This document shows positions 8,905-55,110 of a stretch of DNA of 64,000 bases, in pieces. Made by a program: the position numbers and the translations under genes. Source of the stretch: a phage; the sequence record PZ583739.1. The stretch is one strand, 5' to 3'. Under the pieces are notes generated by a model. It was not told the DNA's origin, made no database searches, and saw only the letters and a program-made list of their open reading frames with translations. How positions within the stretch are numbered: position 1 is the stretch's first letter; each line of letters starts with the position of its first letter.

Positions 8905-8939
8905 GGAGCATTATACTCTGCTCCCATGAGTTTGTACAC
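8905..8939 (-). promoter_or_regulatory. early promoter with stem-loop (PeSL-like)
   Basis: minus strand GTGTACA ... TATAAT; inverted repeat GGAGCA (8905-8910) / TGCTCC (8919-8924) around the -10. Confidence 0.5.
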
Positions 8940-33233: not shown

Positions 33234-33887
33234 ATGGAACCAAAAGTAGGAATATCAATACCCGACCTACTTTTTGGACTTCTTGATAGAATTTTTAAAG
33301 ATAATGCGACCGGGAAAGTTGTTTTTTCCCGGGTACTAGTTATTGTTCTATTATTTTTAATGGCGGTAATCTGGTATAAAGGTGATGCACTTTTAGATGC
33401 GTACAGGGATGCTTCATATGCCTCATACACAGAAATGATAAGGCAAGACCAGGACAACAGATTTAAAATTGCAGCTATCGAGCAAATCCAGATAGTCCAC
33501 TCGTCAAGTGGGGCAGACTTTACAGCAATATATTCTTTTAGACCAACTAACCTTAACTACTTTGTGGATATGGTGGGATACGAGGGGATATTGCCTGATA
33601 CAGTCGACGAAAAAAATTTAGGTGGGTTTCCAATAGATAAAACTTCGGCGGAATATTTGGCGGGGGTTAATGGTAATTATTTTGAATCCAGTACGGAATC
33701 TGTATTCTTACCAACAAAGAAAAAAAGCAGCTTCTCATATATGTTCAGCTGCCCATTCTTTAATTTGGAAAACGTTTATGCAGGTACAGTCTCACTGTAC
33801 TGGTATAAGCAAAAACCTAACCTTGGTTTTGATAGGCTTTCTGCTATGTGTGGACAAGCAGGTCGTACGCTTGGGCGTACACGTTAG
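33234..33887 (+). CDS. t: holin
   Basis: 217 aa; ...DLLFGLLDRIFKDNATGKV..., ...LNYFVDMVGYEG..., C-terminal ...MCGQAGRTLGRT match T4 holin T as remembered. Confidence 0.9.
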   Translation: MEPKVGISIPDLLFGLLDRIFKDNATGKVVFSRVLVIVLLFLMAVIWYKGDALLDAYRDASYASYTEMIRQDQDNRFKIAAIEQIQIVHSSSGADFTAIYSFRPTNLNYFVDMVGYEGILPDTVDEKNLGGFPIDKTSAEYLAGVNGNYFESSTESVFLPTKKKSSFSYMFSCPFFNLENVYAGTVSLYWYKQKPNLGFDRLSAMCGQAGRTLGRTR

Positions 33888-34159
33888 AATCCGGAGGTAT
33901 ACATCATAAGATAACGGTGTATATCTTCGAATCCTTCGTTAAATTGTTCAATGATTTGTTCAATTTCATCTTCAGATAAACTTTTAAACAACTTGTTAAA
34001 CGATACATTGTTTAACTCATTCCCATTCTCATTTCTCAATCCCAACTCATTCAAAAACGCGATAAACACATCACGCTTCATCGTAATATCTTCCCGGTCG
34101 GTTTTAATCAAAATTGAAGTTATAGTAACAATTTCAGAAACGATTTCAAATTTAGTCAT
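33884..34159 (-). CDS. asiA: anti-sigma70 factor AsiA
   Basis: 91 aa; ...ITSILIK..., ...FIAFLNE..., ...DEFNEGFEDIHRYLMMYT match T4 AsiA as remembered. Confidence 0.8.
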   Translation of the reverse strand: MTKFEIVSEIVTITSILIKTDREDITMKRDVFIAFLNELGLRNENGNELNNVSFNKLFKSLSEDEIEQIIEQFNEGFEDIHRYLMMYTSGF

Positions 34160-34217
34160 TTTAATTTACTCAAGTATTCAATAAGACATTCAATTATTCA
34201 GTAAGGGTATTATACTA

Positions 34218-34382
34218 TTATTCCTCTGGGTTGTACACATGATTTTCCATGTGTACAACATATTCCTGATACATCTGTTCAACTGGTTCCTGGAACTTAA
34301 AATCAGCTCCAAGGAATTCCTCAAAGCAAGCCAGCTCGCGTGTACGTTGACCGGTGATGGTGTTCTCTAAGTTATGACTCAT
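34218..34382 (-). CDS. small acidic protein (54 aa), not in ORF track
   Basis: ATG 34382, TAA 34218; MSHNLENTITGQRTRELACFEEFLGADFKFQEPVEQMYQEYVVHMENHVYNPEE; contains a perfect 12-bp inverted repeat. Confidence 0.25.
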   Translation of the reverse strand: MSHNLENTITGQRTRELACFEEFLGADFKFQEPVEQMYQEYVVHMENHVYNPEE

Positions 34383-34471
34383 AATGATTCCCTTTGTGCT
34401 TCTGCTTACGTTTGGACTGCATTTTGGTTTTCTTCTTGTCCTTATGGACAGACGCCTTATTGAAATCGTGC

Positions 34472-34753
34472 TTAGCTACCAGATTGTTCATGCAATTTCC
34501 TTAATTGATATTCAAGAGAACTAATAATTTCTTTATTGGTTGCTATATACATATCACGCAGGAAAGGCTTCAATCCTACCATGCTTTCATGAAATGTCTT
34601 AGAACTAATATCCTTTATATATTCATGGTCTAAGGCTATCCATGCAGGTTGGTTAACATAAGTTCCCCAGTTGTCTTCCATCATAGTGTTCAGACGTTTG
34701 ATATGATTGATATGGGTTTCGATTGCATCAATCTGGAGTTGTTTAAGGTTCAT
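34472..34753 (-). CDS. hypothetical protein
   Basis: 93-aa ORF. Confidence 0.45.
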   Translation of the reverse strand: MNLKQLQIDAIETHINHIKRLNTMMEDNWGTYVNQPAWIALDHEYIKDISSKTFHESMVGLKPFLRDMYIATNKEIISSLEYQLRKLHEQSGS

Positions 34754-35250
34754 TAGTAAAGGTCCTCTGAATAAAGTTCTTTTTCGCTACCGCCACGTTC
34801 AATACGCACCTGATTTGCATAAGTCGCAATAATCATTGCTTCTTCGCGGGTCCAGTAATTGCTGTATTGGTCAATGAATCCTTGGTCGTCACCACAAACA
34901 TGGTCCGACACAAGTTTATCACTTACCTGGTCAAGCACTTCTGCCATATCCTTGGAATAATGTCTGGCACCAGGAATAACCAGAGTCCCACCATCTTTTA
35001 ACTTAAAGCGGTTGGCTGCACATACAATCCGTCGCTGATATTTTTCATTATTGTTCCAATGAGCAATCTGCCAACAGATTTCAGGAACTTCTTCTAAAAC
35101 ATCCTCTTCCGTATATTCGGTGTAGTCACCATAGGCCTGTAATTTAGCTGCTAGACTTTCTGGAGTTTCACGAGAAAGAGCTTTATCTAATAAAGCCATA
35201 CGGTCTTTAAAGGATAATTCTTTACCTTTTAATGGATTCATTTGAACCAA
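34753..35250 (-). CDS. hypothetical protein
   Basis: 165-aa ORF. Confidence 0.5.
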
Positions 35251-35570
35251 CCTTTAACACGTTGCCACAGACTTTTCTGTTGAGCTTTATTAACACCAAT
35301 TGAGCGAATAACTGGTTGTGATTCCTGGTATTCTTTATAGTCAGCTTTATATACTTCATATGCTGCTGGAACAAAAGCACCAATCGCTGCCATGAAGTTC
35401 TTGCGGACGCCAAACGGTGCTGTCGCATCATCCTGACGATGAATAAGATACTGACCAGCTTTGACCTTGACAATAGTTCCAAGGTAAGCGCCATGATACC
35501 AAACATCCCAACCCTCTTGAGTAGGTTCCGCACAAGCACGCAATTCATTAACAATATTCAGCTTATTCAT
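35238..35570 (-). CDS. hypothetical protein
   Basis: 110-aa ORF; the overlapping alternative frame 35222-35554 looks non-coding. Confidence 0.5.
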
Positions 35571-35577
35571 AATTTCC

Positions 35578-36186
35578 TCACTTTAAGATGTTAATAACAT
35601 GTTGAATGTTTTCAGTTGACATATGATTGTCAATGTAGGTATTCAATCCACCTACTTTAACGCTAAATCCCACGTCTGTAAACTGTTTTACTATCTTTTG
35701 TTCAGTATTATACGCATGCACACGAATCTGACCATCACGACGTACATCAATCTGTTTTAATGTCTTGATACGCTTGAACTTCACAATCAGATTGCTGCGG
35801 TCTTCTGAAATGCTCTTAAAGTCAATACCAATAGACAATAATTGCTCTTTGATATATTCTGCAGTCGCTTCCATTTCATCAGTCACACCGCGTTTTGTTC
35901 TTGTCTTCTTCACTTCCAGAAGGTCGGGATTATTTTCATTCGCCCACAATTCTGCTGCATCCAGAATAAGGTCAACACCTTTTTCTGTAACCATCAAACC
36001 ATCACCGGAAGCTTCAACATAGTTGTTATTCAACAATGTCTGTACACTATCAATTGATGTGTTCTGCTGGTCTAAAACAACTTCTGGACTCACAAAGTTG
36101 TTTTTGTATACAAACACCAGAGCATTAACATCAGTCTCATGTAGAGCGTTCTGGGAGCATTTAACGATATAATTTAACTTGTTCAC
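35578..36186 (-). CDS. motA: middle-transcription activator MotA
   Basis: 202 aa; MNKLNYIVKCSQNALHETDVNALVFVYKNNFVSPEVV...EASGDGLMVTEKG... resembles T4 MotA; position between asiA and 52. Confidence 0.75.
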   Translation of the reverse strand: MNKLNYIVKCSQNALHETDVNALVFVYKNNFVSPEVVLDQQNTSIDSVQTLLNNNYVEASGDGLMVTEKGVDLILDAAELWANENNPDLLEVKKTRTKRGVTDEMEATAEYIKEQLLSIGIDFKSISEDRSNLIVKFKRIKTLKQIDVRRDGQIRVHAYNTEQKIVKQFTDVGFSVKVGGLNTYIDNHMSTENIQHVINILK

Positions 36187-36188
36187 AA

Positions 36189-36416
36189 TTATCCCTTAAT
36201 AGATTTCATATAATTTGATGCATATGATTGTACCACAGTACGTTTCATATGGGAAGTAGAAACAATCACATCAATCGCTTGTTTACGTTCTTCTTTAGAG
36301 TTTGCCAGTTTGAACATGTCAAAGTAGTAATAACAAGCTTCTTTATTAGATTTGAATTTAGCGTTAATGTATTCTTGACCTTCATTCTGTTGTGCAGTAA
36401 ACATTTTATTCTCCAA
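36189..36416 (-). CDS. hypothetical protein
   Basis: 75-aa ORF with conserved CTGGAGAATAAAATG start context. Confidence 0.45.
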   Translation of the reverse strand: MENKMFTAQQNEGQEYINAKFKSNKEACYYYFDMFKLANSKEERKQAIDVIVSTSHMKRTVVQSYASNYMKSIKG

Positions 36417-40347: not shown

Positions 40348-40383
40348 TTTATTCTCCAGTCTGTTTGGTAACTCAGTATGGAA

Positions 40384-40416
40384 TCATTATACAATAGACT
40401 CCATACTGATGTACAC
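40384..40416 (-). promoter_or_regulatory. early promoter with conserved leader
   Basis: minus strand AAAAAGTAGTGTACA -18nt- TATAAT then leader GATTCCATACTGAGTTAC. Confidence 0.5.
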
Positions 40417-40702: not shown

Positions 40703-40749
40703 GATAATGTCCTCATTTGTTGGTATGAGGACATTATTACACAGTTGGT

Positions 40750-50633: not shown

Positions 50634-50669
50634 GGGGTCATTATACTCTGACCCCAAGAGTTTGTACAC
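50634..50669 (-). promoter_or_regulatory. early promoter with stem-loop (PeSL-like)
   Basis: near-identical copy of the 38882-38917 element: GGGGTCA / TGACCCC around TATAAT, GTGTACAA upstream. Confidence 0.5.
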
Positions 50670-55078: not shown

Positions 55079-55110
55079 ATCATTATACACTATTCATCTT
55101 TTATGTACAC
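55079..55110 (-). promoter_or_regulatory. early promoter with conserved leader
   Basis: minus strand AAAAAGTAGTGTACA (55104-55110 rc) ... TATAAT then leader GATTCCGTACTGAGTTAT. Confidence 0.45.

Follow-up and report, generated by a model that had tools for sequence, protein, structure and literature searches.

The locus described here raises the question of why a perfect inverted repeat lies inside a small gene directly upstream of asiA in a T4-type phage, and whether its symmetry serves any purpose. In the 64-kb stretch of DNA analyzed (hereafter the window), the repeat finder returned GTTGTACACATG, ATTTTC and CATGTGTACAAC at positions 34230-34259, i.e., two fully complementary 12-bp arms (GTTGTACACATG at 34230-34241 and CATGTGTACAAC at 34248-34259) around a 6-nt spacer, which confirms the palindrome reported in an earlier note. 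On the minus strand, the 12-6-12 element likewise reads GTTGTACACATG GAAAAT CATGTGTACAAC, with the arm that is upstream with respect to transcription (GTTGTACACATG) at 34248-34259, the loop GAAAAT at 34242-34247 and the downstream arm (CATGTGTACAAC) at 34230-34241. The earlier note had suggested a protein-binding operator or a recombination site. Our analysis points to another reading, which we hold with good but not full confidence, namely that asiA has an early (sigma-70) promoter of the T4 type whose upstream half is this feature, located in the last 14 codons of an AsiA.1-like gene; the palindromic symmetry is most likely without a function of its own.

At the level of the sequence itself, the repeat folds well. 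The RNA fold of the 38-nt segment reached -17.4 kcal/mol, a stability equaled by 0 of 200 shuffles, and the single-strand DNA fold of the repeat gave -11.8 kcal/mol (z = -5), with 4 of the 12 stem pairs being G-C. Counted over the whole 64-kb window, the perfect repeat is mildly unusual and not significant, because 11% of 300 dinucleotide-preserving shuffles of this window also held one or more perfect 12-bp inverted repeats whose loop did not exceed 20 nt (shuffle mean 0.15 register counts, compared with 3 observed counts at 2 loci). When up to one mismatch was allowed in the 12-nt arms, a shuffled window contained about four inverted repeats, and the 11/12 form of the ancestor, which is the state in nearly all relatives, is therefore unremarkable against chance. 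The earlier note had also proposed to look for the palindrome elsewhere, and within the 64-kb window we found no arm copies beyond chance: the search returned only both arms and two matches with two mismatches each (4 compared with 5.8 by chance). A dispersed binding site was rejected on this deficit.

The phage behind the window is of the T4 type and belongs to the JS98/VR7 group (Dhakavirus/Gaprivervirus), with Yersinia phage vB_YenM_P8 as best match over 951 nt (96.5%). Locally, a gp38-like adhesin and holin t (33234-33887), both on the plus strand, are followed on the minus strand by asiA (33884-34159; Pfam PF09010, E = 1.7e-20; phrog_1166), coding for the anti-sigma-70 factor and co-activator of middle transcription, and by the 54-aa ORF at 34218-34382, in which the repeat occupies codons 42-51 (VVHMENHVYN). 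AsiA of the window is 100% identical to that of JS98. Further along, a 39-aa DUF7230 ORF, a 93-aa homologue of Arn.2 (40% identity to T4 Arn.2) and an Arn.3-like ORF follow, all on the minus strand. The ORF had been placed downstream of asiA, whereas on the transcribed strand it lies upstream. It is acidic (11 Asp/Glu vs. 3 Lys/Arg), and the earlier statement that the repeat sits in a small acidic ORF is borne out, as this minus-strand ORF is conserved and encoded in 84 phage records. Together with its Shine-Dalgarno sequence and a dN/dS of 0.06–0.29 relative to related phages in codons 1-38 (dS up to 0.79), this distribution indicates that the ORF is a real gene.

By profile match and synteny, the 54-aa ORF corresponds to JS98 orf247 and represents a full-length member of phrog_5245 (E = 2.5e-33). 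Its N-terminus (MSHNLE...F.EF) and its synteny are shared with T4 AsiA.1 (phrog_3762; BLASTP E = 2e-5 over residues 1-24, 46% identity), and the two families phrog_5245 and phrog_3762 match each other with E = 0.006 and 2.6e-4; only the first 24–28 residues align, however, while the C-terminal halves are unrelated. Based on the phrog_5245 match, the shared N-terminus, the cross-matches between the families and the lack of similarity to Arn, we regard the ORF as a positional and N-terminal homologue of T4 AsiA.1 and not as Arn, whose position it had been thought to occupy. In T4, asiA.1 (50 aa) is located directly upstream of asiA with arn mapping beyond it, and the ORF sits at this asiA.1 position, between asiA and arn in T4 terms; a homologue of arn was not found between asiA and arn.2 in this phage. 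What the ORF has in common with T4 Arn (McrBC inhibitor, phrog_3151) is that of a small acidic early protein from the asiA-motA segment, but the two show no similarity (BLASTP E = 0.6 over 6 residues), they differ in length (92 vs. 54 aa), and the PHROG matches of the ORF are 5245 and 3762, not 3151. GenBank labels of its homologues as “YozE-SAM-like” or “RNA polymerase sigma factor” are unsupported, since a Pfam search of the ORF gave no match at E ≤ 0.1.

Apart from its coding role, the end of this gene carries the signals of a promoter directed toward asiA. The promoter scan placed TGTACA, a 17-nt spacer and TATAAT at 34237-34209 on the minus strand (10/12 matches), where the minus strand reads, 5' to 3', GTTGTACACATG GAAAAT CATGTGTACAAC CCAGAGGAATAATAG TATAAT ACCCTTA. 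The sigma-70 hexamer TGTACA occupies 34237-34232 and overlaps GTGTAC at 34238-34233, which agrees in 5 of 6 positions with the GTTTAC found at -36 to -31 in T4. The -10 hexamer TATAAT (34209-34214, minus strand) adjoins the stop codon of the ORF on its downstream side and lies about 50 nt 5' of the asiA ATG; the stop codon itself (TAA, 34220-34218) falls inside the 17-nt spacer, between -35 and -10. From this geometry, transcription is predicted to start at an A 7 nt past the -10 element (34202), which would give a leader of 43 nt up to the ATG at 34159 on the same strand. Relative to this predicted start, the repeat spans approximately -58 to -29. The downstream arm carries the -35 element, as supported by the promoter scan, the motif family and the alignment, and the loop contains an AAAA tract at about -44 to -41; the upstream arm, at about -58 to -47, is coding sequence and not notably A/T-rich.

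Early promoters of T4-type phages are described by the consensus GTTTAC at -36 to -31, an A-rich stretch at -40 to -44 and a -10 element TAnnnT (PMC1524935), or, for T4/PST, by TTTACW-N17-TAYWAT (PMC4122927). The element upstream of asiA combines a -35 sequence resembling GTTTAC, a TAnnnT 17 ± 1 nt further on and A-rich positions at about -40 to -44 with the proper orientation and a short distance to an early gene, as well as with conservation that is independent of the overlapping coding sequence. Moreover, the motif belongs to a family. GTGTACAA, which is present on both strands of the repeat (plus, 34250-34257; minus, 34238-34231), occurs 10 times on the minus strand of the window and once on the plus strand, this single plus copy being the other arm of the repeat, and judging from these counts it is the usual -35 motif of early promoters in this phage. 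GTGTAC and GTTTAC are found 23 and 22 times, respectively, on the minus strand, and GT[G/T]TAC-N17-19-TAnnnT occurs 13 times on the minus and twice on the plus strand, compared with about 5.7 expected in total; several of these sites are near-identical strong promoters, e.g., aaaaataGTGTACaaactcatggggtcagagTATAAT.

The earlier observation of a promoter motif on both arms is therefore correct as far as GTGTACAA is concerned, but only the arm on the minus strand is accompanied by a -10 element. For the plus-strand arm, neither the promoter scan nor the motif search found a TAnnnT at 17–19 nt, and a plus-strand promoter from this GTGTACAA copy was rejected, since a -10 element at a workable distance and a conserved ORF on that strand are both lacking. 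A middle promoter with a MotA box was likewise rejected: TGCTT is present inside the ORF, but no -10 element was seen by eye at 11–13 nt. In the mechanism that we propose, the arm at 34230-34241 would supply the -35 element (GTGTACAA), the loop the A-tract at -41 to -44 and TATAAT at 34214-34209 the -10 element, so that the sigma-70 holoenzyme of the host RNA polymerase could start at about 34202 right after infection and yield the asiA transcript.

The region was aligned with its counterparts in 26 relatives, T4 among them (27 sequences with the window). GT[G/T]TACAA and TAnnAT vary little or not at all across these 27 sequences, with a spacer of 16–17 nt, and this set includes T4 as well as the Mosigvirus ESCO47, whose ORF is just 38% identical. 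Among asiA loci from IMG/VR, the motif was found upstream of asiA in 41 of 47, nearly always 60–82 nt before the asiA match. The T4 element is cagTTTACAaatcaagcgtctgatgaTATTAT inside asiA.1, where it is read in the frame caG TTT ACa (Q-F-T), whereas the frame in the window is GTG TAC (V-Y); the DNA motif is thus kept across differing frames and amino acids, which argues for conservation as DNA and not as peptide. In addition, most of the ORF is gone from a natural variant (L011), in which the promoter is kept and even duplicated.

The same observations bear on the view that nothing regulatory is present at all, i.e., that both arms are plain coding sequence, that the promoter match arose by chance and that asiA is transcribed via upstream read-through only. 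A simple sigma-70 scan of 33800-36400, which returned 8 sites compared with 9.7 in shuffles, would agree with such a view, as would the -35 hexamer, which matches TTGACA at just 4 of 6 positions. However, the maintenance of motif and constant spacing from the window to T4 despite a different frame and different amino acids, the strong strand bias of the motif family and the persistence of the promoter in the natural variant without the ORF render it highly unlikely.

The closest known counterpart of the feature is the T4 early promoter, namely the one that T4 has at the corresponding position, followed by the PeSL cassettes discussed below. In both phages the small ORF that immediately precedes asiA carries the promoter at its 3' end, and the gene downstream is the same; the T4 asiA.1 promoter consists of GTTTACAAA, 18 nt and TATTAT, compared with GTGTACAAC, 18 nt and TATAAT in the window, and both share A-rich -40s and fit the GTTTAC consensus at -36 to -31. 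They differ in that the window has G instead of T at -34, a common variant in this phage, in that the motif is placed in another reading frame of the ORF, and in that the ORF of the window stops before the -10 element, whereas T4 asiA.1 runs through it. Finally, an inverted copy upstream of the -35 element is absent in T4. On the grounds of motif, position and conservation, we thus consider it quite probable that the element is a previously unannotated early promoter of asiA in JS98/VR7-like phages, situated inside the end of the AsiA.1-like gene.

Conservation of the other half of the repeat follows a different course. According to the alignments and the per-pair counts, the upstream arm (34248-34259) exists in five variants among the 26 relatives (GTTGTACAGATG, GTTGTACGGATG, GCTGTACACATG, GCTGCACAGATG or GTTAAAAAGAAC) and is perfect in none of them. 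The form GTTGTACAGATG, with CAG for Gln, is found in JS98, P8, TH44, VR20/25/26, SP18, CLBP2 and TH15, GTTGTACGGATG in VR5, dhaeg, ESCO10 and AV111, GCTGTACACATG in VR7 (C being the differing base), and GCTGCACAGATG in UPEC01; most close relatives thereby show 11/12 pairing and a Gln where the window has His. The whole Bp7/JS10/WG01/IME clade carries GTTAAAAAGAAC while keeping the ORF at 79–81% amino-acid identity, and in Bp7, JS10, WG01 and others, in which the arm reads GTTAAAAAGAAC, the hairpin is absent (about -2 kcal/mol). Altogether, 10 of the 26 aligned relatives have a wholly different sequence in place of the upstream half-site.

Consistently, the predicted hairpin energies separate the lineages. 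The window reaches -17.4 kcal/mol and the first clade (JS98/VR7/VR5) -8.3 to -14.8 kcal/mol, so that a hairpin is present in 17 of 17 sampled members of this clade, all of them close relatives (-8.3 to -17.4 kcal/mol with the window included), while the Bp7 clade (-2.0 to -2.5 kcal/mol), ESCO47 (-4.1 kcal/mol) and T4 (-0.6 kcal/mol) do not exceed shuffles in stability. The perfect form could not be recovered elsewhere: a megablast search of 50,697 phage records gave no full match to the 30-mer and found only VR7 (28/30), and a 100% match to a 46-nt query was not found either. A degenerate pattern built from the variants observed in the clade identified no perfect copy in IMG/VR, only five relatives that were already in the alignment, and a scan of 241 million metagenome records with the same pattern yielded one contig, which is not perfect; all six sequences from these two scans carry the CAG or CGG forms.

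These data weigh heavily on the operator proposed earlier, according to which the 12-6-12 palindrome would bind a dimeric phage or host protein, cover the -35 element and repress asiA, e.g., in the course of early-promoter shut-off. Two 12-bp half-sites with a 6-bp spacer overlapping a -35 element are indeed a geometry typical of repressor operators, and the shut-off of early promoters in T4 is not explained by AsiA (PMC2988021). One half-site is, however, unconserved even at >90% identity, with its five variants and full replacement in 10 of 26 relatives, and it is missing where the same promoter and neighboring genes are kept; the perfect form exists in one genome only, and the 64 kb hold no second site beyond chance. 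Given the unconserved half-site and the missing second site, an operator is very unlikely and hardly to be expected here. The earlier note had itself named loss of the palindrome from relatives that conserve the ORF, together with a lack of protein binding, as what would refute its proposal of an operator or recombination palindrome, and the sequence half of this condition is what Bp7, JS10 and WG01 display.

The main rival is a composite cassette of the PeSL type, in which the hairpin over the -35/UP region would be selected in the JS98/VR7 clade. At the RNA level, it would attenuate or pause read-through from early promoters further upstream or shield the 3' end of the upstream message, with the embedded promoter restarting transcription for asiA, and, as DNA, the hairpin might provide a site for recombination. 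PeSL cassettes (Arbiol et al., 2010; Comeau et al., 2014) join a strong sigma-70-like early promoter to a stable stem-loop, and subclasses with the stem-loop over the -35 box or just upstream of it have been described (Arbiol et al., 2010; PMC2839356). The present locus shares this combination, i.e., a sigma-70-like early promoter with a stable stem-loop (-17.4 kcal/mol) over the -35 element, and the same genome has PeSL-like promoters with stems around the -10 element: several other early promoters in the window have inverted repeats bracketing -10, and one pair of promoter copies shows compensated differences (ggggtc...gacccc vs. gggagc...gctcct). Within the one clade, the hairpin recurs in 17 of 17 sampled members, the VR5 subclade adds a second stem that brackets the -10 element, and short stems touching -35 are found in two other lineages of asiA promoters (L051-54 and L058-60).

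Codon-position counts could also be taken in favor of a selected hairpin. In the hairpin clade, third positions vary in 2 of the last 14 codons, compared with 23 of 38 in the 5' part (Fisher p = 0.004), whereas first and second positions vary at 9 of 28 sites in the last 14 codons and at 13 of 76 in the 5' part. Since third positions are suppressed and first and second positions more variable there, the end of the ORF is constrained as nucleic acid rather than as protein, and this constraint reaches into the upstream arm. Such a suppression of synonymous variation across the hairpin region fits an embedded promoter, with the -35 element and UP-element contacts to about -60, and equally a selected hairpin.

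Other features of the locus set it apart from PeSL cassettes. Its stem is coding instead of intergenic and AT-rich in setting, not rich in G/C tracts, and confined to one clade; both the stem and the -35 element lie inside the ORF, and the upstream stop codon is located in the spacer between -35 and -10, not upstream of -35. CCCAGAGGAAUAAUAG, the sequence after the stem, contains no U-run, and the scan for terminators gave no hit at this site. An intrinsic (Rho-independent) terminator was rejected, the stem having 4 of 12 G-C pairs and being followed by CCCAGAGG, with no U-run and no hit in the scan. Rfam gave no match at E ≤ 1 in 33800-34800. The window holds no other copy of the stem, so that pairing between copies, as recombination would require, is not possible, and the hairpin is absent from the Bp7 clade, ESCO47 and T4, all of which keep both ORF and promoter. 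The clade members that share it are about 85–96% identical to the window at this locus, so that shared ancestry alone would suffice to explain its recurrence.

Within the stem, we counted in the hairpin clade two T-to-C changes that break pairs, two A-to-G changes that keep the pair as a wobble, one G-to-C change that makes a pair and one G-to-A change at the mismatch, i.e., about half pair-breaking and half pair-keeping, a mix that neutral drift would give. A two-sided compensatory change was not found within this clade, and pair-breaking changes occur in VR7 and UPEC01. One CG-to-AU double change (columns 19-36) was considered as covariation and rejected as structural evidence, as it separates the two clades and coincides with the loss of five other pairs. 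Overall, we regard selection of the hairpin as part of a PeSL-type cassette as rather unlikely. Still less probable, and in our view distinctly doubtful, is the more specific idea that the hairpin of the JS98/VR7 clade is a selected device, acting by RNA attenuation or as a DNA operator, that would tune AsiA from read-through vs. local initiation as a coding-embedded PeSL variant, with the 12/12 form as an adaptive strengthening.

Under the preferred reading of an embedded early promoter, the symmetry would have arisen from its neighborhood. The upstream arm at 34248-34259 would be passenger coding sequence (Val-Val-His-Met) that happened to acquire 11/12 complementarity to the -35 region in an ancestor of the JS98/VR7 clade, a coincidence eased by the fact that TGTACA is its own reverse complement. 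The 12/12 form in the window may then have come about via a single G-to-C change, turning CAG into CAC (Gln to His); this CAG-to-CAC polymorphism is also seen in VR7, and the perfect repeat is found in none but this genome. The feature is thus probably an ordinary early promoter, of a kind already known, whose symmetry is lineage-specific and most likely functionless.

The case also holds a methodological lesson. A self-reverse-complementary -35 core such as TGTACA readily creates striking palindromes with its neighbors, and the conservation of each arm consequently needs to be checked separately. If the hairpin were selected after all, PeSL cassettes would extend into coding sequence, and the locus could offer a handle on how the dosage of AsiA is set. 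The main value of the finding lies in annotation: the small ORF should no longer be taken for Arn, an early promoter of asiA is placed in JS98/VR7-like phages, and the end of the AsiA.1-like gene appears to contain this promoter from these phages through to T4.

Within the acidic 54-aa ORF upstream of asiA (34218-34382, minus strand), the last 14 codons (34218-34259) were found to show reduced third-position variation among members of the JS98/VR7 clade: third codon positions are variable in only 2 of these 14 codons, compared to 23 of 38 elsewhere (p = 0.004). By contrast, the first two codon positions are more variable here than in the remaining ORF. Such low third-position variation represents the footprint of a constraint acting at the nucleotide level, which we attribute to the embedded promoter; a selected hairpin, as formed by the palindrome at 34230-34259, would fit the pattern equally well. 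A terminator scan revealed a terminator-like hairpin inside the ORF on the minus strand (34306-34327; GCTTTGAGG-AATT-CCTTGGAGC, followed by TGATTTTAAG), featuring nine pairs, three of them G-U, and an EcoRI site at its centre. According to the alignment of relatives, the DNA at this hairpin is highly conserved across both the JS98/VR7 and the Bp7 clade, but in several relatives one of its pairs is disrupted by a substitution at a third codon position (alignment column 72, T to G or A).

The start of the acidic ORF overlaps by 11 nt with a very basic 39-aa ORF (34372-34491, minus strand), which was assigned to DUF7230 (PF23876, E = 3.9e-12; phrog_1359), and the two constitute a tightly coupled micro-ORF pair. 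In comparison to JS98, the AsiA protein (33884-34159) is 100% identical and the 951 nt of DNA around asiA are only 93% identical; the neighbouring 54-aa ORF differs in 3 of 54 residues. In GenBank records (PP693301, OM386655, PQ341120 and others; asiA loci L013, L019, L002), homologues of the latter carry the names “RNA polymerase sigma factor” and “YozE-SAM-like domain-containing protein”, and none of these labels was supported by Pfam at E ≤ 0.1. In these records, “anti-restriction nuclease” is the label of Arn.2/Arn.3 homologues, and the holin of ESCO10 bears the label “recombination endonuclease VII”.

Further variation was observed at the asiA promoter itself. VR5, CLBP2, dhaeg, ESCO10 and AV111 (loci L004, L016, L018, L019 and L021) feature an additional 7-bp stem, AAGAATA...TATTCTT, bracketing the -10 (TACAAT; locus positions about 760-785), and together with the -35 hairpin this stem reaches -23 kcal/mol (z = -4.6) for an 86-nt region in the VR5 subclade. 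In the IMG/VR locus L011 (IMGVR_UViG_2974741249, 155 kb; 601-992), a natural variant, a deletion has removed the greater part of the AsiA.1-like ORF and created a frameshifted fusion at 645/646, while the asiA promoter is retained. A unit of 172 nt, which spans the promoter and codons 1-32 of asiA, is present there as a direct repeat (647-818 and 821-992; 99% identical, 174 nt apart). This arrangement reflects either a genuine rearrangement at the promoter or an artefact of assembly.

Apart from the palindrome at 34230-34259, the only perfect inverted repeat in the window whose arms reach 12 bp or more is a 13-bp repeat at 40704-40737 (ATAATGTCCTCAT-8-ATGAGGACATTAT). On the minus strand, a motif search identified a family of sites that resemble strong early promoters (aaaaa(g)ta-GTGTACA/GTTTACA-N17-TATAAT), with the G of the -35 at 50669, 38917, 8939, 40416, 19514 and 2624, and further sites at 55110, 6703 and 63172. 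The inverted repeats I2 (40368-40414) and I10 (2583-2617), detected by the repeat finder, belong to this family. In many of the sites the -10 is bracketed by an inverted repeat: those at 50669 and 38917 have ggggtc-agagTATAAT-gacccc, the one at 8939 has gggagc-agagTATAAT-gctcct, and the difference between these stems is compensated. Early-promoter-like sites with such stems around the -10 look like the promoter-early stem-loop (PeSL) cassettes described for RB49/phi1 and PST/T4.
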